Both the position numbers and the translations under genes were made by a program. A stretch of DNA of 64,000 nt, taken from an uncultured Chloroflexia bacterium (GTDB taxonomy: Bacteria > Chloroflexota > Limnocylindria > Limnocylindrales > CSP1-4). Below, piece after piece: positions 33,116 to 44,369 of this stretch (position 1 is its first letter; each line of letters begins with the position of its first letter). The DNA is taken from contig CAVYXU010000004.1 in NCBI GenBank assembly GCA_963772565.1, positions 3,886-67,885 of the forward strand, read 5' to 3'. The notes beneath the pieces are model-generated. The model saw only the letters and a program-made list of their open reading frames with translations, had not been told where the DNA came from and made no database searches.

Positions 33116-36100
33116 CTACTTCTGGAAGTCGAACAGCACCTCGTGTGATGTCCCATCCACGAGTGTGAAGCTCAGCTGCTGGCAGGTCCCGGCCAACGCC
33201 TTGTCGGTCTTCCAGGTGTAGACGTACTGGTCGGCGATCGGGTCATACCGGAGGCTGCCCGTTGCGGCCACGGCGGGGCCGGTCGGGGTCCCATCCGTGC
33301 ACGAGATCGGCGTCGCCGTCGGTCCGCTGGCGAAGATGTCCGAGCCGCGATCGCCGCCGAGGCTGAACTTGACGGGCACGGTCCGGCCAGCCTTGGCGGC
33401 GTTGAATCCCGGCGCCGGGTCGACCGGAGGCCGGAACCCGCTGAACGGGAACGGGATCACGAACGTGGCGACGCCCGGATCGTGATCGCTGGTGCCGCGC
33501 GCGACGTCGCCGGGGTAGTCCGCCGGGAAGTCGCTGTTGATGTGCGCAATCCTGAACTGGTCGAGGTTCGCGAGCATCGAGGGCGTCACGAACATCTGGT
33601 CGAGCGTCTGCGCCATGCCCTGGTACACGTAGGAGTAGGCGGACGCAGGCGCCTGGCCGAGCAGGACCTCCCACAGGTTCTTCAGCCCGAGGGACGGATC
33701 GTAGAGCGCGCCGAGCTGGTCGCTCGAGCCGGCCTGCCCGATCGGCGCGAACGGGTCATCCGGTCGCGGATAGACGTTGAGGTCGCCGCCGACGACGACC
33801 CGGGCATCCGGGTTGGCCTGCTCGAGATAGGCCACCAGCGCGGCGTTGTAGTTGGCCTGCTCGGTGCGGTGGTCGACGCACGCGTCAGGGCCGCTCTTGA
33901 AGTGGTTGTTGACCACGTACACGTCCTGCTGGAGATCGGCGTCGATCCCGGTGCCGTGGATCCGGAACAGGGCGACGCCGGGCGCGCGCGGGAAGACCCA
34001 CGCGGTCTCGCACGCGGAGACGCCGGCCGGCAGCTCGGCGTTGAGGGTCTTGGGGTTGGACACGTCGGCGTCGTACGGGACAGGCGTGTAGCCACCGATC
34101 GCGGGATCGCCGCCCAGGACCGGGTCACCCGCCGGTGGCAGGAGCTCGACCCGGTCGGTGCGGTAGAGGAAGGCCGGGGCGATGCCCCGCAGGTCCGAGC
34201 TGTCGCGGTCGAACGCGGCGTCGTAGGCGGGACCGCCCAGGGCGCTGATCCGAAGCGCGAGCTCCTGGAGCACGTCGGGCTTGCCGTCCGCGTTGTTGGT
34301 CGTGCCGCAGGCGAGGGCTCCGGCCGACACGGTACAGATGTCCTGGTTCTCGACCTCCTGGACCATCAGGATGTCCGGGCTGTGGAGGTCGGTGATGACC
34401 TGGTGCGCGATGTCGCCGAGTCGCGCCTGGTAGGCGGCGTCGCTCGCCGGCACGTAGTCGAACGGCGAGGACACGGCCGCCAGGAACGGGGCGACCCTGG
34501 GACACCCGCTGTCACCGGTGAAGTCGCAGCCGGAGAATGGGTCGTCGCGGTAGTCGTACAGGTTCTCGAGGTTGTAGTCGGCGATGCTGTAGCGCAGGCT
34601 GCGATCGAAGGCCTGCGGCGGGTTGTCGGCCGAAGGGTCGACGCCCTCGTTGAACACCGGCTGCCCGGTGATCTCGATCCGGTACTTGCCGAAGGTGTAG
34701 TTGAGCCCGCCCGATGGGGCGTTGGTGAGCGTATCGAACGTCCGCGCCGGATCGATCAGCGCCTGGCCGTCGGCCTCGGTCGCCTTGATGCCGAGGCTGC
34801 CCAGCAGGATCCGGTATCCGTTGCCATCCCAGCTGGTCGGGTCGTAGTTGTCATCGAGCAGGTGGGCATCGCGGAAGGCACGACGCCAGAACGGGTTCGC
34901 GCGCTGCGCGATCGTGCTGTCGGAACGCGCAACCCAGATCTCGGCATCGGCCGGGTTGAACACGTTTCGACCACCGAGGACGACGCTGCCCGCGGGGGCC
35001 TCCACGCGGCTGCCCTGGAGGCGCTCCCAGTAGCGGTTGGCATCGTCGAGCGCGACCGGCGGGTCCGCGACGGCGGCCGGGACCTCGGCGTCGACGTCGA
35101 CGCCGGTGCGCACGACCTTGAGCAGCCGCAGGCTGCCCAGCTCGGTCATGTTGTAGTACTCGCTGACCCGCCCCGACATGACGACCTCGTCGCCGACCTG
35201 TGGCACGTAGTAGCCGCCACCCGAGACGAGGATGTCGCCGTAGGCACCCATGAACGCGAACAGCCCGTCGGACGTCGTCGCGTCGCCGTCAGCCGTGGCG
35301 GCCGTGTTCTGGAGGAAGAGGCCCTTGTACGTGTTCGCGGAGTTGCTGATCGCCTGCAGGGTGTTCTCGTAGATCACGCCCTGGACGGTCACCGTCTGGC
35401 CGACGTACGGGGACAGGTGCGCGGTCCCGCTGTCCGTGTCGAGGACGGGACCGTTGACCGTCCCGATCGGAAGGATCTCCAGCACGGTGAGCGCGATCGT
35501 CGCGCTTCCGGTGCGCGCCTGGGCGTCGTCGAGCGTGCAAGCGAGGCTCGTCTCCCCGCCGGCCGTGCCGTCGGCGATCGAGGCCTGGAACGAGAACGTG
35601 AGATCGCCGGCGACATCGTCACCGTTGGTGCCGTCGTCGAACAGCGCCTGCGTCGCGGAGCCGCCGATCGCGGTCAGGTCACATGTCACGGCAAGGCCGG
35701 TGCTTGTCGGGGACGACCCCGGCGTCACGGCGACGGTCAGCAGTGTGGTGTCGCCGGCGAACAGGCTGTTCGGGGTTGCGGCGCCGACGCCGTTCGGGTC
35801 CGTGGGACCGGTGCAGCTGTGGAGCGGCGAGGCCGAGTTGCGGGGCGCCGGGGCGTCCGCCGCGAAGTCCGCGCTGTTGTCATCGGTGTCCGTGCAGCCG
35901 CCATTCGCGCGGAGGTCGGCCGTCGTGTTCGACGTCGCCGGTGCCGCGGCCCCGCCCTCGAAGAAGTTCGCGCTGCCCCAGCCGATCAGGTCGACGATCT
36001 GGGCGAGCTGCGACGGAGAGCAGGGGTTGTTGCTGCCGTTACAGCCGAGCGAGTCGGCCGTGTTGGCGAGCGCGACCTTGCCGGCCGTCCCCGACATCGC

Positions 36101-36502
36101 GATCGGGGACGTGTCGGTGATGTCCGGCGTCGGGAGGGCCGTCGTGCCTCCGGATCCCTGCGCTTCCTCGACGAGGATGTACTGGCCGGGCCCGATCGAG
36201 CCGGCGAGCGGCGTGAGCTGGGTGCTGCTCGAACCGAGGTTGCCGGTGCCCGTCGCCGACGCGTACTGGACGGACCAGCCGCTCAATGAGACCGTGGAGG
36301 TCCCGCGGTTGAACAGCTCGATGAAGTCGTTGGTGTACGTCGCACCGCTGTTGCCGCCACCGCCATACACCTGGCTGATCACGACATCGGGTGATGCGGC
36401 AGCGGCCGGGGCGGGTAGTGCCGCCCCTGCCGATCCCGCTATCAGGGCTGCTGCGACGGCGAGAATTCCCGCACGCCTGTAGGCAAGCCGCGCATTCGGC
36501 AT
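33116..36502 (-). CDS. ExeM/NucH-type extracellular nuclease (lamin-tail domain plus endonuclease/exonuclease/phosphatase domain)
   Basis: Signal peptide, then an N-terminal VISQVYGGGGNSGATYTNDFIELFN LTD signature, and a C-terminal EEP region (ILMVQEVEN, GTSDHDP). Confidence 0.85.
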   Translation of the reverse strand: MPNARLAYRRAGILAVAAALIAGSAGAALPAPAAAASPDVVISQVYGGGGNSGATYTNDFIELFNRGTSTVSLSGWSVQYASATGTGNLGSSSTQLTPLAGSIGPGQYILVEEAQGSGGTTALPTPDITDTSPIAMSGTAGKVALANTADSLGCNGSNNPCSPSQLAQIVDLIGWGSANFFEGGAAAPATSNTTADLRANGGCTDTDDNSADFAADAPAPRNSASPLHSCTGPTDPNGVGAATPNSLFAGDTTLLTVAVTPGSSPTSTGLAVTCDLTAIGGSATQALFDDGTNGDDVAGDLTFSFQASIADGTAGGETSLACTLDDAQARTGSATIALTVLEILPIGTVNGPVLDTDSGTAHLSPYVGQTVTVQGVIYENTLQAISNSANTYKGLFLQNTAATADGDATTSDGLFAFMGAYGDILVSGGGYYVPQVGDEVVMSGRVSEYYNMTELGSLRLLKVVRTGVDVDAEVPAAVADPPVALDDANRYWERLQGSRVEAPAGSVVLGGRNVFNPADAEIWVARSDSTIAQRANPFWRRAFRDAHLLDDNYDPTSWDGNGYRILLGSLGIKATEADGQALIDPARTFDTLTNAPSGGLNYTFGKYRIEITGQPVFNEGVDPSADNPPQAFDRSLRYSIADYNLENLYDYRDDPFSGCDFTGDSGCPRVAPFLAAVSSPFDYVPASDAAYQARLGDIAHQVITDLHSPDILMVQEVENQDICTVSAGALACGTTNNADGKPDVLQELALRISALGGPAYDAAFDRDSSDLRGIAPAFLYRTDRVELLPPAGDPVLGGDPAIGGYTPVPYDADVSNPKTLNAELPAGVSACETAWVFPRAPGVALFRIHGTGIDADLQQDVYVVNNHFKSGPDACVDHRTEQANYNAALVAYLEQANPDARVVVGGDLNVYPRPDDPFAPIGQAGSSDQLGALYDPSLGLKNLWEVLLGQAPASAYSYVYQGMAQTLDQMFVTPSMLANLDQFRIAHINSDFPADYPGDVARGTSDHDPGVATFVIPFPFSGFRPPVDPAPGFNAAKAGRTVPVKFSLGGDRGSDIFASGPTATPISCTDGTPTGPAVAATGSLRYDPIADQYVYTWKTDKALAGTCQQLSFTLVDGTSHEVLFDFQK

Positions 36503-36908: not shown

Positions 36909-38330
36909 GTGATGGCTGACGACGGGCTCTACGCTGCGCTGGTCCGGCGCGGGATGACCCGGCGCTCATTCCTCCAGTTCTCGACCGCCATGGCGGCCGC
37001 CCTTGCGCTGCCAGCCGCATACGCCCCCCGGATCGCGGAGGCCGTGGCCAAGGCGCCCCGGCTGCCGGTGATCTGGCTCCGCGGCCAGGCCTGTGGTGGC
37101 GAGACTGAGGCGTTCCTCCGCGCGTCGGACCCGACGGCCGGATCGCTGCTGCTCGACCTGTTGTCGGTCGAGTACCACGAGACGTTGATGGCCCCGACCG
37201 GCGCCGCCGCCGACCTTGCGAGGACCAGCGCGATGGAGCGCTACCCGAACGGGTACCTGGCGGTGGTCGAGGGTTCGATCCCGACCGGAGCCGGTGGCGC
37301 CTACTGCATGGTGGGCGGTCGCGCGATCGCCGACATCGTGCGCGAGGTGAGCGACGGTGCGCTGGCCACGATCGCGGTCGGCGCGTGCGCGTTCGATGGC
37401 GGCGCCCCTGGCGCCGGCGGCGGCGTGACCGACGCCCGCAGCGTGAGCGAGATCATGTCAGGCGGTGGTCCGCTGATCGCGCTGCCGGGCAGCCCGCTCA
37501 ACGTGGACAACCTTGTCGCGACGATCGTCCACTACCTGACGTTCAACGACTGGCCTGCGACCGACGGCCGGGGCCGCCCCCTGTTCGCCTACGGCCCGTT
37601 GATCCACAACGAATGCGAACGTCGGCCGCATTTCGAGTTCGGGGAGTTCGTGCAGGCATGGGGCGACGAGGGCGCCCAGAAGGGCTGGTGCCTGTACAAG
37701 ATGGGCTGCAAGGGTCCGGAGTCGTTCGGAAACTGCGCGACCCAGCGGTTTGCTGAGGGCACGAGCTGGCCGATCCAGGCCGGGCACGGCTGCATCGGCT
37801 GCACGATGCCGGACTTCTGGGACGCGATGAGCCCGTTCTACCGGAGGCTCCCGTCGCCGGTGCCGTTCTTCCCCAACGTGACTGCGGACGGCGTCGGAAC
37901 TGCCCTGGTGGGCGGGATCGGGGCTGTCGCGGCAGTCCACGGCGCCGGCATGTACCTGCGGACGCGCCGCAACCGTCGTGCTGAGCGGCGAGCCGCCGCA
38001 ACAGCCGCAGCAACAGCCGCCACCGCAACAGCCGATGGGACGCCGGTGGCCGTGTCGGTCCCGGTCGACACAACAGCCGCCCGGGTTCGCGCGGTCTCGC
38101 CTGCACCGGCGACGCCCGAGCCGGTTGCCCCCACCGAGCTGGTCCCAGCCCCGCCGGCCCCGGCCACGCCGGATTCCAGTGATCGCCCCGAGCCGGCAAC
38201 GGTCGAGCCGGCAACGGTCGAGCCGGCAACGGTCGAGCCGGTCCTGGCCACGCCGGAATCCGGCGATCGTCCTGATCCCGCGACGCCCGAGCCGGCCCCG
38301 GCCACCGGCGACGATCCCGAGGCGCGCTGA
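36909..38330 (+). CDS. [NiFe]-hydrogenase small subunit, Tat-exported, membrane-anchored (HyaA-like) with long disordered C-terminal tail
   Basis: RRSFLQF twin-arginine signal. Medial and distal cluster ligands are present (HNEC, WCLY, GCKGP, GNCAT, HGCIGC). C-terminal TM helix followed by about 115 aa of A/T/P/E-rich tail. Confidence 0.95.
   Translation: MMADDGLYAALVRRGMTRRSFLQFSTAMAAALALPAAYAPRIAEAVAKAPRLPVIWLRGQACGGETEAFLRASDPTAGSLLLDLLSVEYHETLMAPTGAAADLARTSAMERYPNGYLAVVEGSIPTGAGGAYCMVGGRAIADIVREVSDGALATIAVGACAFDGGAPGAGGGVTDARSVSEIMSGGGPLIALPGSPLNVDNLVATIVHYLTFNDWPATDGRGRPLFAYGPLIHNECERRPHFEFGEFVQAWGDEGAQKGWCLYKMGCKGPESFGNCATQRFAEGTSWPIQAGHGCIGCTMPDFWDAMSPFYRRLPSPVPFFPNVTADGVGTALVGGIGAVAAVHGAGMYLRTRRNRRAERRAAATAAATAATATADGTPVAVSVPVDTTAARVRAVSPAPATPEPVAPTELVPAPPAPATPDSSDRPEPATVEPATVEPATVEPVLATPESGDRPDPATPEPAPATGDDPEAR
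38190..38243 (+). repeat. 15-bp tandem repeat x3.6 (gagccggcaacggtc) encoding EPATV repeats
   Basis: Perfect tandem copies inside the small-subunit tail. Confidence 0.9.
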
Positions 38331-38331
38331 C

Positions 38332-40107
38332 ATGGCCCGGATCGCCATCGACCCTGTCACCCGCGTAGGCGGCCACCTCCGGATCGAGGCGGACGTCGCC
38401 GCCGGCGAGGTCCGGGATGCGTGGAGCGCCGGGACCATGTTCCGGGGCCTGGAGCTGGTCCTCCGCGGCCGCGATCCCCGCGATGCGTGGATGATCGCCG
38501 ACCGCGTCTGCGGCACCTGCACGGGCGTGCATGCTCTGGCGTCCGTGAGGGCCGTGGAGGACGCGCTGGGCATCACGATCCCGGACAACGCCCGGCTCGT
38601 CCGCAACATCCTCGCGGCCACGCTCGCGGTCCGCGACCACATCGTGCAGTTCTACCTCGCCCAGCTTCCGGACTGGGTCGATGCGACGGTCGCGCTGGGC
38701 GCGGACTCCACCGCTGCCTCGACCCTCGCGCGCTCGATGAGCGACTGGCCGCAGTCCAGCCCGGACTACTTCAGCGGCGTCCGCGACCGGCTGGCCACGG
38801 CAACCTCGTCCGGGCAGGCGGGCCCGTTTGCGCCATCGTTCGCCGGTCATCCGGGCTACCAGCTGTCGCCGGAGCTGAGCCTGGTTCTGCTCGCACACGC
38901 GATCGAGGCGCTCGACTGGCAGCGCGACTTCATGCGGATCCACACGCTGCTGGGCGGCCGCGACCCGCACCCGCAGTCGTACCTCGTCGGCGGCGTCTCG
39001 CTGACGCCGCCCTGGGGCGGCCCGCCTGCACGGCGCGCCGGCGAGCATCCGCAGCTGCCGGACCGCAACACGCCGTCGGCGTTGAGCGATGCGGGCCTCA
39101 CCCTGATCGACAACCTGATCAGCAAGGCCCAGACGTTCATCTCGTGGGTCCTGATGCCCGACGCTCTCCAGCTGGCGCAGGCGTACCCGGACTGGGGCAA
39201 GGTCGGCCGGGGGACGGGCAGCTACCTGGCCTTCGGCGACTACCCGGGCGCGGCCGTCGAGGCCGGCAAGCTGTTCCTGCCGCGAGGTCGGATCCTCGGT
39301 GGCAACCTCGCGTCCCTGTCCGAGATGAACGCGACCTCGGTTGCCGAATCGGTGGCTGCCTCCTGGTATGCCCAGGACGACAGCGATGCCGGCCCGCGCC
39401 AACCCGTCAACGGGCGCACCGACCCGGTGTACTCCGGGCCCCCGCTCCCGCTGGTCTCGCTCGAGGGATCCACCCGGTACAGCTGGCTCAAGGCTCCGCG
39501 CTACAACGACCAGCCGATGGAGGTTGGCCCGCTGGCGCGGATGGCGGTTGCCTACGGCGACGGGCAGGTCGATGTCCGGGCAGCCATGAACACGGCGCTC
39601 ACCACGTTGGGGCTCGAGCCGGCCGCGCTGTTCAGCACCCTGGGCCGGATGGTCGCCAGGGCGGTCGAGACGCGGGTCCTCGCCAGCCAGGCAGGCGACT
39701 GGCTGATCGAGCTGCAGGGGAACCTCGCCGCAGGCGACCTCGCGCTGGTCGATGGCGGCCACTGGGATCCCGGCACCTGGCCCGCGTCGGCAGAAGGCTC
39801 GTCGCTGGGTGAGGGGCCGCGGGGTGCCGTGGGCCACTGGGTGTCGATCCGCGACGGCGTCATCGGCGACTACCAGATCGTCGACGCGACCACGTGGAAC
39901 GCTTCTCCGCGTGATGCCACGGGAACGCGCGGCCCGCTCGAGCAGGCGCTGATCGGCACGCGCGTATCCGACCCGGGCCAGCCGCTGGAGATCCTGCGGA
40001 CCGTCCACTCGTTCGATCCGTGCATGGCCTGTGCCGTCCACGTCTTCGATCCGCGCGCCGGCGGCCCGATCCAGATCCGCGTCAACCGCACGGAGACCGC
40101 CCGATGA
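38332..40107 (+). CDS. [NiFe]-hydrogenase large subunit (group 1, HyaB-like)
   Basis: RVCGTCTGVH and DPCMACAVH Ni-Fe ligand motifs, with a C-terminal extension for protease cleavage. Confidence 0.95.
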   Translation: MARIAIDPVTRVGGHLRIEADVAAGEVRDAWSAGTMFRGLELVLRGRDPRDAWMIADRVCGTCTGVHALASVRAVEDALGITIPDNARLVRNILAATLAVRDHIVQFYLAQLPDWVDATVALGADSTAASTLARSMSDWPQSSPDYFSGVRDRLATATSSGQAGPFAPSFAGHPGYQLSPELSLVLLAHAIEALDWQRDFMRIHTLLGGRDPHPQSYLVGGVSLTPPWGGPPARRAGEHPQLPDRNTPSALSDAGLTLIDNLISKAQTFISWVLMPDALQLAQAYPDWGKVGRGTGSYLAFGDYPGAAVEAGKLFLPRGRILGGNLASLSEMNATSVAESVAASWYAQDDSDAGPRQPVNGRTDPVYSGPPLPLVSLEGSTRYSWLKAPRYNDQPMEVGPLARMAVAYGDGQVDVRAAMNTALTTLGLEPAALFSTLGRMVARAVETRVLASQAGDWLIELQGNLAAGDLALVDGGHWDPGTWPASAEGSSLGEGPRGAVGHWVSIRDGVIGDYQIVDATTWNASPRDATGTRGPLEQALIGTRVSDPGQPLEILRTVHSFDPCMACAVHVFDPRAGGPIQIRVNRTETAR

Positions 40108-40940
40108 CGACCGTCCAGAAGCCGTTGCCGGGCCGTGTCGAGGCGGGGCCGACGCCGCCCGTCCTGCCGGTTCCGTCACCCGCGAGCGGGCTCGACCCTG
40201 TGAAGACACCGCCGCCGGTCGCCGAGGCCGCCCGCCCTGTCGACCGGCCCCACGAGCGCGTTCAGCTGTACGTGTGGCAGATCCCCGTGCGCTTCACCCA
40301 CTGGCTGACCGCCGGCTGCATCGTGGTCCTCAGCGTGACCGGCGGCTATATCGCCGATCCGTTCCTCATCGCGCCCGGCGGCGGCGTGATGACGACGATC
40401 CGGTTGATCCACATCCTCACGGCATTCACCTTCCTCATGTCGGGACTGCTCCGGACCTACTGGCTGCTGGCGGGAAACCGCTTCGCTCGCTGGTCTGCAT
40501 TCATTCCGACCTCGCGCTACCAGGCGATGGAGCTGTTCCGCCAGGCCGGGTTCTACGGCTTCATCCGCAAGGAGATCCCGAAGGTCCTGGGCCACAACCA
40601 GCTGGCCGCGACGGCGTACCTCGCGCTGTTCGCGCTCCTGCTCGTCGAGACCGTCACCGGGTTTGCCCTCGACGGCCTGATGGGGTCGGAGCCCGGTGCG
40701 ACGCTGTTCGGCTGGCTGCGCGAGCTGATGGGTCCGCAGCTGCTCCGCCTGATCCACCACCTCGCGATGTGGGCGATCCTCGCGATCGCGCTGTTCCACG
40801 TGTATAGCTGCGTGCTCGTCGATCACATCGAGAAGAACGGGCTGATGTCGAGCATCTTCAGCGGCTTCAAGTTCCCCACCAGGGAAGAGGTCGTCGAGTC
40901 GCGCGACGGCGGTGCGGACCTCCTGGAGCGCATCGAATGA
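40104..40940 (+). CDS. Ni/Fe-hydrogenase b-type cytochrome subunit (HyaC-like)
   Basis: The start overlaps the upstream stop (ATGA). Four TM helices and an RFTHW motif. Confidence 0.85.
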   Translation: MTTVQKPLPGRVEAGPTPPVLPVPSPASGLDPVKTPPPVAEAARPVDRPHERVQLYVWQIPVRFTHWLTAGCIVVLSVTGGYIADPFLIAPGGGVMTTIRLIHILTAFTFLMSGLLRTYWLLAGNRFARWSAFIPTSRYQAMELFRQAGFYGFIRKEIPKVLGHNQLAATAYLALFALLLVETVTGFALDGLMGSEPGATLFGWLRELMGPQLLRLIHHLAMWAILAIALFHVYSCVLVDHIEKNGLMSSIFSGFKFPTREEVVESRDGGADLLERIE

Positions 40941-41476
40941 CCCGCGGCGACCGCCCGATCGTGGTCATCGGTATCGGCAACGTCCTGCTCGGCGACGACG
41001 GCGTCGGCGTCCGCGCGGTCGAGGCACTGGGCCGGATGGCCGAGGCCGACCCCGGGGTGCTGCCTCGCGGCACTCGACTCCTCGACGGTGGGACGCTCGG
41101 GCTCAATCTTCTGAACGACCTCGACGACGCACGGGCGCTCATCCTGGTCGACGCCGTCGACCTTGGACGTGCGCCGGGAACGGTGAGCGTGATGCGGGGC
41201 GATGAGCTCGCTGTCGCGGACGGTTTCCGGACCCCGTCGCGCCAGGGTGGGGTGGGGGAGCTGCTGGCGACCGCGCGGCTGCTCGCGATCCTGCCGCCTG
41301 ACGTGCTCCTGGTCGGTGTCCAGGCGGGCGCGATCAATGTTGGCCAGGCATTGTCGCGCGAGGTCGCGGCGGCGATGCCTGCGGTGGCCGAGGCCATTCG
41401 GCGCGAAGCCCATGCGCTGGCGGGCTCGAGTCCGTCGTCATCCCGGACCCCGGAGCTGGCAGGAGCGGTCTCATGA
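40937..41476 (+). CDS. hydrogenase maturation endopeptidase (HyaD/HybD family)
   Basis: VIGIGNVLLGDDGVG and LVDAV motifs. The start overlaps the upstream stop. Confidence 0.9.
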   Translation: MTRGDRPIVVIGIGNVLLGDDGVGVRAVEALGRMAEADPGVLPRGTRLLDGGTLGLNLLNDLDDARALILVDAVDLGRAPGTVSVMRGDELAVADGFRTPSRQGGVGELLATARLLAILPPDVLLVGVQAGAINVGQALSREVAAAMPAVAEAIRREAHALAGSSPSSSRTPELAGAVS

Positions 41477-42219
41477 GCACCAGGCTCGACCGGGGGCTGC
41501 GCGCCCTCATCGTTGCGAACTTCGTGGTCGTTGCCGCGCTCGCGGGCCTGATGGTCGGCGGGTGGCTCCAGATCCTCCCGGACCTCGATGCACAGCCCAG
41601 CCCGAGCGCGTCCGCGGCGCCATCGATCGAACTGATGCAGATGGGGCTGGCCCACATCCCGACCTCGAACGACTGCCTCCTGTGCCACGACCAGGGCGGG
41701 GAGGGGGGTCTCAAGCCGATCCCTGCGCTCGGGCATCCGCTCGACGGCTGGGGCGCCTGCCTCGTGTGCCACACCAACGAGGACCTGGGTCGCGCGGCAC
41801 CGGGCCATGAGGACATCGCCCAGTCCGAGTGCCTCAACTGCCACACGGTGGCGCAGCCCGGGCCAGCGATCACGCAGGCGCACTCGGAGCTCAACCAGCC
41901 CTGCCTCGACTGCCACGGCAGCGTTGCCCACCTTCCGTCGAGCATGGTCGGGCGCAACCAGGACGATTGCTGGCTGTGCCACAAGCCGGCGGCGGAGAAG
42001 CCACCCCAGGAGCCGCACCCGAACAACCCGAACCTCACCTGCCGGTCGTGCCACCAGGCGTCGAATGTCGGCGGCCTGCCGATCGACCACGCGCTCCGCG
42101 CCGACGACACGTGCGTCCTGTGCCACGACATGGACCGCCTCGGCGCGACGCCGACGCTGCCCGGCACGAGGCCGACCCTGCCCGCAACGACGCCTGTACC
42201 GCCCGCCGACGGAACCTAG
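41473..42219 (+). CDS. membrane-anchored heptaheme c-type cytochrome
   Basis: N-terminal TM helix then seven CxxCH motifs (CLLCH, CLVCH, CLNCH, CLDCH, CWLCH, CRSCH, CVLCH). Each of motifs 2-7 is preceded by a His 8-18 residues upstream. ATGA overlap with the protease gene. Confidence 0.9.
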   Translation: MSTRLDRGLRALIVANFVVVAALAGLMVGGWLQILPDLDAQPSPSASAAPSIELMQMGLAHIPTSNDCLLCHDQGGEGGLKPIPALGHPLDGWGACLVCHTNEDLGRAAPGHEDIAQSECLNCHTVAQPGPAITQAHSELNQPCLDCHGSVAHLPSSMVGRNQDDCWLCHKPAAEKPPQEPHPNNPNLTCRSCHQASNVGGLPIDHALRADDTCVLCHDMDRLGATPTLPGTRPTLPATTPVPPADGT

Positions 42220-42276: not shown

Positions 42277-42705
42277 ATGAACGGATCCTCGGGCAACCTC
42301 ATCCGGGTCGGGCAGGCAGCCGAGATGCTCGGCGTGACCGTCGAGACGCTGCGTCGATGGGAGGCCGAGGGCCGTCTCCGGGTTGAGCGCTCGCCGGGTG
42401 GCCAGCGGCTGGTGCCGGTCGCCGAGGTGACGCGCCTGCTCGCCGAGCGTCGCAACGAGACGGCCGACCGGCCCATCGTCGCGCAGTCGGCGCGCAACCG
42501 GTTCGAGGGCATCATCACCCGCGTCGAGAAGGACCGGGTCGCGGCCGTGGTCGAGGTGCTGGCGGGACCGCACCGCGTGGTCAGCCTGATGACGGCCGAG
42601 GCGGTCGACGAGCTCGGTCTCAAGGTTGGCGACGAGGCCGTGTGCGTCGTCAAGGCGACGAACGTGGTCGTGGAGATCCCGTCGAGGCGCGAGACCCGCG
42701 GATGA
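42277..42705 (+). CDS. MerR/excisionase-type HTH plus TOBE (Mop) domain molybdate-responsive regulator
   Basis: N-terminal IRVGQAAEMLGVTVETLRRW HTH and a C-terminal SARNRFEGIIT...VCVVKATNVVV TOBE domain. Confidence 0.85.
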   Translation: MNGSSGNLIRVGQAAEMLGVTVETLRRWEAEGRLRVERSPGGQRLVPVAEVTRLLAERRNETADRPIVAQSARNRFEGIITRVEKDRVAAVVEVLAGPHRVVSLMTAEAVDELGLKVGDEAVCVVKATNVVVEIPSRRETRG

Positions 42706-43530
42706 TGCCGCCTGCCAACCGGGCCGCGCGCGCGGCCCGGGTTGCCCTCGTGTCGCTCCTCGCCCTCGGTGTCGTGGCGGGGTGCACGCTGGCGACCGGT
42801 GGAGACGGCCCCGGGCGGCCGGGCGCCGGTCGAGCTCCGGGTCGCCGCCGCCGCGTCGCTCCGGACCGCCATCGTTGCCCTCCGGGACGCCTACCTGACC
42901 TCGCACCCCGGGACCACGATCACGATCGCAACGGACTCGTCGGCCGCGCTCCGCACCCAGATCGAGCAGGGCGCCCCGTTCGACGTGTTCCTGTCGGCTG
43001 ACGAGGAGAACCCGCAGGCCCTCGCCGACGAGCACCTGGCGGCCGGCGACCCGATCGCGTTCGCGGGCAACTCGGTGGCGCTCGTCGTCCCGGCCGACAA
43101 CCCGGGCAGGATCGCGACGCCCGCCGATCTCGCCCGTCCCGGGATCCGCCTGGTCGCCGCCGGGGCGCGCGTCCCGATCACGACCTACGCCGATCGGGTG
43201 ATCGCCAATCTCGGCTCCATCGCCGGGTACCCACCGGGCTACGCGGCGGCGCTCGGGGCGAACACGGTGAGCCGCGAGGACAACGTGGCGGCCGTGCTGG
43301 CGAAGGTCGAGCTGGGCGAGGGCGATGCCGGGTTCGTGTACGCCACCGATGCCGCGGGCAGCACCAGTGTGCTGACCATCGAGCTCCCCGAGGGAGCCGA
43401 CGTCCCGGCGCGATACGCGGGCGTCGTGATCGCGAACGGCCACGTGGACGCTGCTGCCGGCTTTCTCGGATGGGTGGCCGGTCCGGCCGGCCAGGCGATC
43501 CTGCACCCGCTGGGGTTCCTCGCGCCATGA
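42702..43530 (+). CDS. modA: molybdate ABC transporter substrate-binding lipoprotein, interrupted by a +1 frameshift at about 42807-42828
   Basis: The signal peptide and lipobox (VVAGC) are in frame 0 from ATG 42702. The mature ModA (VAAAASL..., FLSADE, GFVYATD) is in the 42742..43530 frame. Confidence 0.8.
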
Positions 43531-44369
43531 CCGCCGTCCCGGCACCTGGTGGGTCGGCGGCACGAGGTTCGCGCCGGGCCGGCAGATCGTCGCTCGCCGT
43601 GGCGTGGATCCTCGGGTTGGTGCTCGCGCTGCCCGTGGTCGTGCTGGTCGCGAGGGCGGTCGCGGGCGGATCGTTCGCGGCGATGCTCGGCTCCGCTGCC
43701 GTCGTCGACGCGCTGGCGCTCAGCCTGGTCACCACGACGTGCAGCCTCGCGGTGACGATCGTGATCGGAATGCCGCTGGCGTTCGTCCTCGCACGGCGTC
43801 GCTTCCGCGGCTCCGCGCTGCTGGAGACCGTGGTCGATCTGCCGATCGTGCTGCCCCCGGCGGTCGCCGGGCTTGCGCTCCTGCTCGTGCTCGGGCGGCG
43901 CGGGCTGCTCGGCGGACCACTCGACCTGCTCGGCCTCACCATCCCGTTCACCACCCTCGCGGTCGTGATCGCCCAGGTGTTCGTGGCCTCTCCGTTCTTC
44001 ATCCGATCCGCGCGTGCCGGCCTGGCGGCGGTGGACCGCGACGTCGAGGATGCTGCGCGGGTGGACGGCGCGACGGAGGCCGACCTCATCCGCTGGATCA
44101 CGGTTCCGCTCGCGGCGCCGGCGCTCGCGGCCGGGCTGGTGATGGCGTGGGCCCGGGCGCTGGGCGAGTTCGGCGCCACGATCATGTTCGCGGGCAACGT
44201 CGAGGGGCGGACCCAGACGCTGCCGCTGCTCGTGTACGGAGAGTTCCAGGGCGGCGACCTCGATGCGTCGATCGCCGCGGCCGCCGTGCTGGTCCTCGCC
44301 GCGGCCGGCGTGCTGCTGGCGGTCCGGGCGCTCCACTGGGGCCGCGCGCTCGATACGGCGTTCGGCTGA
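43527..44369 (+). CDS. modB: molybdate ABC transporter permease
   Basis: EAA-loop region (DAARVDGATE...PLAAPAL). The start overlaps the modA stop. Confidence 0.9.
   Translation: MTAVPAPGGSAARGSRRAGRSSLAVAWILGLVLALPVVVLVARAVAGGSFAAMLGSAAVVDALALSLVTTTCSLAVTIVIGMPLAFVLARRRFRGSALLETVVDLPIVLPPAVAGLALLLVLGRRGLLGGPLDLLGLTIPFTTLAVVIAQVFVASPFFIRSARAGLAAVDRDVEDAARVDGATEADLIRWITVPLAAPALAAGLVMAWARALGEFGATIMFAGNVEGRTQTLPLLVYGEFQGGDLDASIAAAAVLVLAAAGVLLAVRALHWGRALDTAFG

Follow-up and report, generated by a model that had tools for sequence, protein, structure and literature searches.

The window analysed here, a 64-kb stretch of DNA from an uncultured Chloroflexota bacterium (GC content 71%; all coordinates without a locus name refer to it), contains an open reading frame on the plus strand at 41473..42219 that encodes a heptahaem c-type cytochrome, named Cyt7 in this work. 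The cyt7 gene is the last of a cassette that also encodes a predicted group-1 [NiFe] hydrogenase with its own cytochrome b. Cyt7 is probably a dedicated haem-wire subunit or partner of this enzyme, carrying H2-derived electrons from its outer face. The gene is obligately linked to the hydrogenase genes, and especially to cytB, the gene of the cytochrome b.

Linkage of cyt7 to the hydrogenase genes

Two independent scans carry this finding. The scan by cytochrome covered 185,579 species genomes and gave 42 loci from metagenome-assembled genomes (MAGs) of Limnocylindria or 'Chloroflexia', with 52-93% identity. In 41 of these loci the available upstream DNA holds hydS-hydL-cytB-(protease), with gene order and strand unchanged. 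The second scan searched metagenomes by cytochrome b and gave 80 loci, 21 of which are too short downstream to be judged. Cyt7 is present in all 59 informative loci and missing from none. The earlier note on this DNA, made from the sequence alone, had proposed to see whether the reading frame stays intact in relatives that keep the hydrogenase. It does so in these 59 loci, and 70 of the 71 complete cyt7 copies in the fetched loci of both sets encode exactly seven CxxCH motifs. The only broken copy (L038) lies on a contig on which hydL is broken as well, which indicates assembly frameshifts.

The cassette occurs in two architectures. About three quarters of the loci have the protease gene between cytB and cyt7, and in about one quarter cyt7 directly follows cytB, so that cytB is the constant neighbour of cyt7. 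The protease-less arrangement is found in L039, L093-L096, L100, L103-L105, L130 and others. In L130 cytB and cyt7 overlap by 4 nucleotides. No protease gene was detected in the fetched flanks of the protease-less loci. The genes 3' of cyt7 vary, with ModE/ModAB present only in close relatives of the window and Pribosyltran/YceI elsewhere, and cyt7 thus closes the conserved unit.

The sole exception to the linkage is L040, which has an intact cyt7 orthologue with 52% identity (L040:9838-10765). Upstream of it there is only a 52-codon remnant of hydS, consisting of the Tat (twin-arginine translocation) signal and then a stop, and neither hydL nor cytB is present. Either the hydrogenase genes were deleted in this genome or the locus is an assembly artefact.

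The reading of cyt7 as an unrelated passenger, or as a spurious or decaying open reading frame beside the hydrogenase genes, is effectively refuted. Many spurious reading frames arise in high-GC DNA and the protein has no specific family annotation. However, synteny is broken in only one of about 100 informative loci at 52-93% identity, start and stop codons overlap, the GC content at third codon positions of the cyt7 frame is 91%, the Cys and His residues are invariant, and the complete copies are, with the one exception above, intact.

Architecture of Cyt7

The features of the gene and its product are as follows.

41461..41465, plus strand: AGGAG ribosome-binding site, 7 nucleotides 5' of the cyt7 ATG, read from the sequence
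41473..42219, plus strand: Cyt7, 248 residues plus stop, last gene of the hydrogenase cassette
41503..41577, plus strand: putative signal-anchor membrane helix (residues 11-35), from hydropathy, conservation and the AlphaFold2 model
41578..41640, plus strand: variable Pro/Ser/Ala-rich linker (residues 36-56), column identity 0.50, predicted local distance difference test (pLDDT) below 50
41641..42132, plus strand: haem domain (residues 57-220), AlphaFold2 pLDDT mostly 70-86
41674-41688, 41758-41772, 41830-41844 and 41902-41916, plus strand: CxxCH motifs 1-4
41968-41982, 42040-42054 and 42112-42126, plus strand: CxxCH motifs 5-7
H61, H88, H112, H137, H153/M158, H182 and H206: candidate distal haem ligands
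42133..42216, plus strand: Pro/Thr-rich low-complexity tail (residues 221-248), where paralogues have an eighth haem unit

The earlier description of the open reading frame as encoding 248 residues with one N-terminal membrane helix and seven CxxCH motifs was confirmed in full from sequence and hydropathy. The motifs start at residues 68, 96, 120, 144, 166, 190 and 214, which places the haem sites 22-28 residues apart. All 14 Cys residues belong to these motifs. The 14 His residues are divided equally between the motifs and positions elsewhere (H61, H88, H112, H137, H153, H182 and H206). When the residues of the protein were shuffled 200,000 times, CxxCH occurred 0.04 times on average and at most three times, compared to the seven observed. 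Within the window, Cyt7 is the only plausible coding frame with any CxxCH.

The motifs form regular units, and six of the seven match the pattern H-x(6,7)-CxxCH. A His residue 8-18 positions upstream of each of motifs 2-7 had been noticed before. That claim is right in substance: five of these motifs have the His 7-8 residues upstream and motif 5 has it at a distance of 13, and motif 1 likewise has a His 7 residues upstream.

Residues 11-35 are the sole strongly hydrophobic stretch of the protein, with a Kyte-Doolittle maximum over 19 residues of 2.44, compared to values of at most 0.67 past residue 60. AlphaFold2 places a helix at residues 2-34 with a pLDDT of 88-98. Three Arg residues precede the hydrophobic stretch and Asp37 and Asp39 follow it, which according to the positive-inside rule indicates an N-in/C-out topology. 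The haem domain is thus predicted to lie outside the membrane.

The ATG of cyt7 at 41473 overlaps the TGA of the protease gene at 41474-41476 (the sequence reads ATGA). Both this overlap and the Pro/Thr-rich tail, in which 7 Pro and 7 Thr are found among 28 residues, had been pointed out in the earlier note and hold. A scan for consensus promoters and terminators between 36300 and 42800 found none, a result that is uninformative at 71% GC.

Family and conservation

A search of 5.8 billion proteins gave 441 matches to Cyt7, and the best 120 of the 441 were characterised. These are 226-280 residues long and 59-85% identical to Cyt7, and all but one of the 120 have seven CxxCH motifs. All the named ones are called 'hypothetical protein' and come from Candidatus Limnocylindrales or Chloroflexi MAGs. 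Judged from these sequences, the family is confined to the Limnocylindria (Chloroflexota).

The 14 Cys and 14 His residues are invariant across 43 orthologues with 58-85% identity, as are M57 and M158. The pattern of haem sites appears to be under strong purifying selection. The haem domain has the highest mean column identity (0.84), followed by the N-terminal helix (0.70), the linker (0.50) and the tail (0.31). Asn16, Trp31 and Pro36 are conserved in the region of the helix, and Asn16 is invariant. Conservation of the helix, but not of the linker, fits a specific contact within the membrane better than a plain anchor.

The same numbers bear on a structural or assembly role, in which Cyt7 would stabilise or localise the complex, for example as an envelope tether through its Pro/Thr tail, while its haems lie off the main electron path. 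The conserved membrane helix would suit such a role, as would the variable Pro/Thr/Ser tails; the small subunit HydS has a similarly low-complexity tail. Nevertheless, the haem sites and ligands are the best conserved part of the protein and the tail is the least conserved, and seven invariant haem sites would be implausibly costly for a scaffold. A structural role is therefore very improbable.

Several database matches were set aside. The proteins P0122, P0147 and P0161, which look like fusions of a cytochrome b or a protease to the cytochrome c, are frameshifted gene calls from high-GC contigs. Matches to giant cytochromes with 65-131 CxxCH motifs arise only from a common unit of about 24 residues and carry no specific functional information. 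Three such database proteins, P0123, P0126 and P0185, are 2,700-3,600 residues long, have 93-131 CxxCH motifs and are made almost wholly of H-x(6-8)-CxxCH units of about 24 residues, as in Cyt7.

The hydrogenase operon

The genes upstream of cyt7 are arranged as follows.

36909..38330, plus strand: HydS, [NiFe] small subunit, with a Tat signal (TRRSFLQF), an iron-sulfur (FeS) core and a C-terminal helix
37896-37958, plus strand: C-terminal membrane helix of HydS (residues 330-350)
38332..40107, plus strand: HydL, [NiFe] large subunit, PF00374 with 587 bits, C-terminal DPCMACAVH with a cleavable extension
40104..40940, plus strand: cytB, HyaC-type dihaem cytochrome b, PF01292 with 92.6 bits and TIGR02125 with 132.9 bits (cut-off 121.5)
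40937..41476, plus strand: HyaD/HybD-type maturation endopeptidase, PF01750 with 64.2 bits and TIGR00072 with 119.4 bits

The last three junctions of the cassette overlap by 4 nucleotides, and a single base separates hydS from hydL. The small subunit matches PF14720 (109 bits), PF01058 (61 bits), TIGR00391 (387 bits) and the Tat signal model TIGR01409 (22.1 bits, cut-off 16.7). A small subunit with a Tat signal, a NiFe large subunit with its extension, a cytochrome b and an endopeptidase are all present, and by these features the operon encodes a group-1 membrane-bound [NiFe] uptake hydrogenase that is predicted to face outwards. The best sequence matches of HydL in the Protein Data Bank (PDB) are 3myr_B (513.6 bits), 4c3o_A (511.9 bits) and Escherichia coli Hyd-1 (~494 bits). 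HydL is thus about equally similar to group-1e (3myr) and group-1d (4c3o, Hyd-1) enzymes. We take the operon layout and the Tat signal to argue against subgroups 1h and 1l.

The cytochrome b keeps the four His ligands of haem b when aligned to E. coli HyaC (4gd3_A). No other protein of the cassette is as well conserved as the cytochrome b, at 70-92% identity; the large subunit mostly reaches 50-60% and Cyt7 54-68%. Such conservation is unusual for hydrogenase operons, and may mean that the cytochrome b has several interaction partners. The conserved part includes the C-terminal stretch FKFPTREEVVESRDGG. A protein-database search with the cytochrome b as query listed orthologues only.

HydS does not have the canonical four-Cys site for the proximal [4Fe-4S] cluster. 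Residues C62-E65 (37092-37103) read C-G-G-E, compared to C-T-G-C in standard group-1 enzymes. The equivalent of Cys20 is Glu65 in the window and Asn, Asp or Glu in all 44 readable orthologues, which suggests a proximal site made of three Cys residues plus a carboxylate or amide. Group-1h enzymes have an Asp-ligated cluster, and the C-G-G-E site recalls it. The change may mark a distinct subgroup of hydrogenases. A second position differs in the window. Ser195 (AGC, 37491-37493) is the equivalent of Cys149/150 in the GCPxN motif, the fourth Cys of the proximal cluster. The residue is Cys in 47 of 48 orthologous loci, and Ser195 is common to the window and its closest relative, L001. Since the single-base change is common to two assemblies, it is probably real.

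The tail of HydS (residues 351-473, 37959-38327) comprises about 120 residues, is rich in Pro, Thr and Ala and is presumably cytoplasmic. It contains a threefold PATVE repeat at 38193-38237, and its length varies widely among orthologues.

Haem ligation and cytochrome c maturation

The earlier note had suggested bis-His ligation of the haems. The seven His residues outside the motifs are invariant in the orthologues, but only five of them (H88, H112, H137, H182 and H206) are invariant across orthologues and paralogues, and M158 may provide an alternative ligand. H61 and H153 occur only in the orthologues; at the position of M158 the paralogues have either Met or His. Because of this alignment, one or two haems of Cyt7 may be His/Met-ligated. 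That the haems are attached to the CxxCH motifs is itself predicted from the motifs.

A scan for the WWD motif of cytochrome c maturation proteins covered 847 kb, comprising the window and 47 loci. It found CcsA only in L034 and L035, at the following position.

L035:11303-12253 (also in L034): CcsA-type cytochrome c assembly gene, PF01578 with 145 bits, separated by about 640 bp from the cyt7 orthologue upstream of it

The CcsA gene indicates that System II is present in the lineage. Pfam scans of 27 proteins of the window found no Ccs, Res or Hyp genes. The proposal to look for maturation genes has thus been answered in part, by a CcsA-type gene elsewhere in the lineage but none in the window itself. 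Cytochrome-c-dependent oxidases have been reported in nearly all genomes of this lineage, which is inferred to be monoderm and mostly aerobic and is reported to be without genes for outer-membrane synthesis (bioRxiv 10.1101/2021.08.23.457424).

Paralogues in NrfD modules

An exhaustive profile search found distant relatives of Cyt7 with 26-50% identity, the same anchor and seven haem units. Many distant relatives have an eighth haem unit in place of the Pro/Thr tail, and 5-haem versions occur too. Five paralogues with readable context (26-40% identity) are each encoded by the last gene of a four-gene cluster, in the order 5-haem cytochrome of the Cyt7 family, FeS protein, NrfD, and 7- or 8-haem cytochrome. 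The FeS protein is DsrO/NrfC-like and has four clusters (4x[4Fe-4S], 202 bits). The start of the 7- or 8-haem gene overlaps the stop of nrfD in all five clusters, which are located as follows.

L045:6767-10897: paralogue module
L046:6775-10942: paralogue module
L047:6795-10786: paralogue module
L131:3346-6801: paralogue module
L132:4628-6789: paralogue module

Two further proteins, P0133 and P0144, are apparently genuine fusions of NrfD to the cytochrome. The cluster may represent a minimal quinone:cytochrome module of the alternative complex III (ACIII) or Qrc type. Members of the Cyt7 family thus regularly accompany the membrane subunit through which an outward-facing redox module interacts with quinone, which is NrfD for the paralogues and the HyaC-type cytochrome b for the orthologues.

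These modules also bear on the idea that Cyt7 is a redox buffer or protective partner, rather than a productive outlet, which would store electrons, reactivate the hydrogenase after attack by O2, or detoxify O2 or peroxide. In other hydrogenase groups, O2 tolerance goes together with atypical proximal clusters, and the proximal site of HydS is non-canonical, with the equivalent of Cys20 replaced in every readable orthologue. The lineage is reported to be mostly aerobic (10.1101/2021.08.23.457424). Furthermore, the quinone route appears to be intact, so that Cyt7 is not obviously needed as an outlet. However, Cyt7 has no signature of a peroxidase or of open coordination, every haem has a conserved candidate for a sixth ligand, and the paralogues lie in NrfD/FeS modules where there is no hydrogenase to protect. 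A protective role is therefore unlikely.

Relationship to known cytochromes

Cyt7 scores slightly above the gathering thresholds of three Pfam families, namely PF14537 Cytochrom_c3_2 (29.4 bits, threshold 25), PF14522 Cytochrome_C7 (28.8, threshold 24.8) and PF09699 Paired_CXXCH_1 (27.9, threshold 20.6). PF02085 Cytochrom_CIII stays below its threshold (18.5 bits, threshold 22.9). The margins are small, and Cyt7 appears to be a member of the generic c3/c7/doubled-CxxCH superfamily only. The earlier view of a membrane-anchored multihaem cytochrome c made of repeated modules is borne out, the units being H-x7-CxxCH of about 24 residues.

The protein had earlier been found impossible to assign to NapC/NirT, and the profile searches agree. 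There is no match to PF03264, and the NrfH model TIGR03153 gives 19.6 bits against a cut-off of 134.2. With seven haems rather than four, Cyt7 was rejected as a NapC, NirT, NrfH or CymA protein. A decahaem of the MtrA/DmsE type was rejected as well, because Cyt7 has seven haems and not ten, and because TIGR03508, the best of the NCBIfam models, gives 31.1 bits against a cut-off of 192.2. No NCBIfam model comes near its cut-off.

The family profile of Cyt7 finds 6r2q_A as its best match in the PDB (E=2e-8, 37 bits), a chain that we take to be MtrA, although the depositor label reads otherwise. Further weak matches are MtrC, an unnamed cytochrome c (28pb), Hmc, NrfB and ActA of ACIII (6btm_A, E=0.007). 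From an alignment of 43 close orthologues, AlphaFold2 produced no usable model (pLDDT 51.5). With 127 orthologues and paralogues, the pLDDT rose to 72, with a predicted template modelling score (pTM) of 0.35, in a model built without haems. Foldseek found no match of the Cyt7 model in the PDB at E<=10, a method that is weak on proteins rich in haem and poor in regular structure.

Class III cytochromes of the c3/c7 type likewise have about 24 residues and an extra conserved His per haem. The tetrahaem c3 accepts electrons from periplasmic [NiFe] hydrogenases of Desulfovibrio; c3 and, as proposed here, Cyt7 are both multihaem proteins that serve a [NiFe] hydrogenase outside the membrane. A HynABC3 arrangement, in which a hydrogenase comes with a c3 gene of its own, has also been described. 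Unlike c3 and c7, Cyt7 has seven haems, is membrane-anchored and operon-encoded, and occurs alongside a cytochrome b subunit. The hosts differ too, a reportedly monoderm and mostly aerobic member of the Chloroflexota compared to a sulfate reducer.

MtrA and DmsE share with Cyt7 a dense and even series of CxxCH motifs with upstream His residues, which suggests an elongated wire. They are soluble or inserted into a porin, whereas Cyt7 is membrane-anchored. No MtrB-like porin was found among the genes of the cassette and its flanks, all of which were assigned to other families. The proteins of the NapC/NirT/NrfH/CymA type have an N-terminal helix and an outside haem domain and serve as electron hubs at the membrane surface, as proposed for Cyt7. 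NapC-type proteins bind quinol themselves. Unlike these quinol dehydrogenases, Cyt7 is accompanied by a separate cytochrome b.

The gene arrangement resembles that of modules that couple the gene of a hydrogenase-type cytochrome b (PF01292) to that of a multihaem cytochrome c with a similar number of haems. In anaerobic methanotrophic archaea (ANME), the Mco system pairs a VhtC-related cytochrome b with a 7-11-haem cytochrome and has been proposed to be a methanophenazine:cytochrome c oxidoreductase (PMC9012536). CbcL of Geobacter is a fusion of a HydC/FdnI-type dihaem cytochrome b to a 9-haem cytochrome c (PMC6295460). In every informative locus of the present cassette, the HyaC-type cytochrome b gene adjoins cyt7 or lies one gene away. 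The likeness to CbcL and Mco is one of gene arrangement. Cyt7 and its cytochrome b are separate proteins, unlike the fusion in CbcL, and both hydS and hydL are present, whereas CbcL and Mco come without the catalytic subunits of hydrogenase, which Mco is described as replacing.

Such modules also raise the possibility that Cyt7 is an inlet, through which electrons of an outside donor (Fe(II), reduced humics or a reduced cytochrome c pool) would pass to the cytochrome b and on to quinone, or to the hydrogenase for H2 formation. Fe(III) reducers and Fe(II) oxidisers alike have been reported to possess multihaem wires and b-c modules of the CbcL/MtoC type (PMC6295460), and the direction of the electrons is not fixed by sequence. 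Nevertheless, the enzyme is composed like an uptake hydrogenase (group 1, Tat-exported, with a HyaC-type cytochrome b), and by established thermodynamics it is energetically unfavourable for donors of this kind to feed the H+/H2 couple. Oxidation of a donor would also leave the obligate linkage to hydSL unexplained. An inlet function is quite improbable.

ActA of ACIII, a pentahaem protein with an N-terminal membrane helix, is a membrane-anchored haem chain beside a quinone-interacting subunit, as are the members of the Cyt7 family. The paralogues, which have 5 or 8 haems and the same anchor, lie in cytochrome-FeS-NrfD clusters comparable to the Qrc, Nhc and NrfBCD-type modules. In contrast to ACIII and Qrc, Cyt7 is paired with a cytochrome b and not with NrfD, is accompanied by neither a molybdopterin-like ActB/QrcB nor an ActE, and has marginal sequence similarity to their components.

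MmcA of Methanosarcina, a heptahaem cytochrome of the Rnf operon, reduces a membrane carrier as well as extracellular Fe(III) and anthraquinone-2,6-disulfonate (AQDS) (PMC10153276). Like Cyt7, it is an operon-encoded, seven-haem addition to a respiratory complex, and the analogy is a functional one. It differs from Cyt7 in being about 500 residues long, related to octahaem tetrathionate reductase and equipped with a cleaved signal peptide, without a membrane helix and with non-canonical haem motifs. No sequence relationship between MmcA and Cyt7 was found, and Rnf is an unrelated complex.

Proposed role of Cyt7

In the mechanism that we favour, the genes hydS-hydL-cytB-protease-cyt7 form a translationally coupled operon that ends with Cyt7 as its fifth product. 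Cyt7 would carry seven covalent haems and be held by one helix in the cytoplasmic membrane, with its haem domain on the outer face. Within the membrane, the helix would contact both the dihaem cytochrome b and the anchor of the small subunit. Electrons from H2 would enter the haem chain at the outer face by way of either the distal FeS cluster or the outer haem b. Cyt7 could then relay these electrons along the membrane surface to an acceptor, bypassing the quinone pool. The candidate acceptors are a cytochrome-c-dependent terminal oxidase or reductase, or extracellular Fe(III) and humics. Alternatively, the cytochrome b and Cyt7 might together oxidise menaquinol, in line with the quinol or methanophenazine:cytochrome c oxidoreductase function proposed for Geobacter CbcL and ANME Mco. 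The physical association, the direction of the electrons and the identity of the acceptor are all putative. The earlier note had proposed that the cytochrome wires H2 oxidation to an extracytoplasmic acceptor. The tight linkage to the hydrogenase genes speaks for the hydrogenase side of this proposal; the extracytoplasmic acceptor is putative.

Several observations weigh against the role of Cyt7 as a wire for H2-derived electrons. Because the four haem-b ligands are kept, the canonical route from H2 to quinone should work without Cyt7, and because the cytochrome b looks fully functional, Cyt7 would be an addition rather than a replacement. None of the neighbouring genes that were read encodes an acceptor linked to the cassette, and the WWD-motif scan of the window gave no maturation gene. 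If the assembly of L040 is correct, Cyt7 can persist without the hydrogenase. The likeness to MtrA and other haem wires appears to be largely driven by the motifs, with a high composition bias. The AlphaFold2 model is moderate and Foldseek gave no match, so that any haem geometry is putative. The host is uncultured, and the role is read from sequence.

To our knowledge, uptake hydrogenases are normally described with one outlet, either a quinone-reducing subunit of the cytochrome b or NrfD type, or a soluble cytochrome c3. Throughout the present lineage, a hydrogenase anchored by a cytochrome b always comes with its own membrane-tethered seven-haem cytochrome. If Cyt7 is a second outlet, H2 oxidation in these widespread bacteria of soil, wetland and freshwater could drive the reduction of iron or humics, or reach oxidases without the quinone pool, and the metagenomic assignment of H2 sinks and of extracellular electron transfer would change. 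A protein family that has so far been labelled 'hypothetical' gains a name and a context, and its paralogues mark a second module, consisting of cytochrome, FeS protein, NrfD and cytochrome.

A more far-reaching interpretation, which we regard as tentative and rather doubtful, is that the enzyme belongs to a new group-1 subclass of H2:multihaem-cytochrome c oxidoreductases, in which a seven-haem wire is built in and bound to the cytochrome b, the proximal FeS site is unusual, and acceptors outside the membrane are reached independently of quinone. If this were true, Limnocylindria of soil, wetland and freshwater would couple H2 oxidation to Fe(III) minerals, humics, partner cells or an oxidase. 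No description of a complete hydrogenase with a cytochrome b and an obligatory operon-encoded multihaem cytochrome was found in the literature searched, which left subscription journals mostly outside its coverage.

Flanking genes

The genes on either side of the cassette are unrelated to it. The upstream neighbour and the inserted downstream genes are located as follows.

33116-36502, minus strand: secreted protein of 1128 residues with lamin-tail and endonuclease/exonuclease/phosphatase domains, directly upstream of the hydrogenase operon
42277-44369: ModE-like (MerR plus TOBE), ModA-like and ModB-like genes, between cyt7 and a phosphoribosyltransferase gene

Further upstream lie genes for a thiolase and an aldehyde dehydrogenase. 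The downstream flank contains ModE/ModA/ModB, the phosphoribosyltransferase, YceI, a protease and a two-component system.

In L128, a 3.6-Mb MAG chromosome, a cluster about 3.5 kb downstream of the cassette (L128:14196-16994) encodes a protein with ferric-reductase, FAD and NAD domains, an FMN_bind protein and an ApbE flavin transferase. It recalls the genes of flavin-based extracellular electron transfer. This cluster is not present in the window.

Only the window and close relatives of it have the Mod genes at this place. In L128 and L129, cyt7 is directly followed by the phosphoribosyltransferase gene without the intervening Mod genes, and the molybdate-transport genes therefore look like a lineage-specific insertion.

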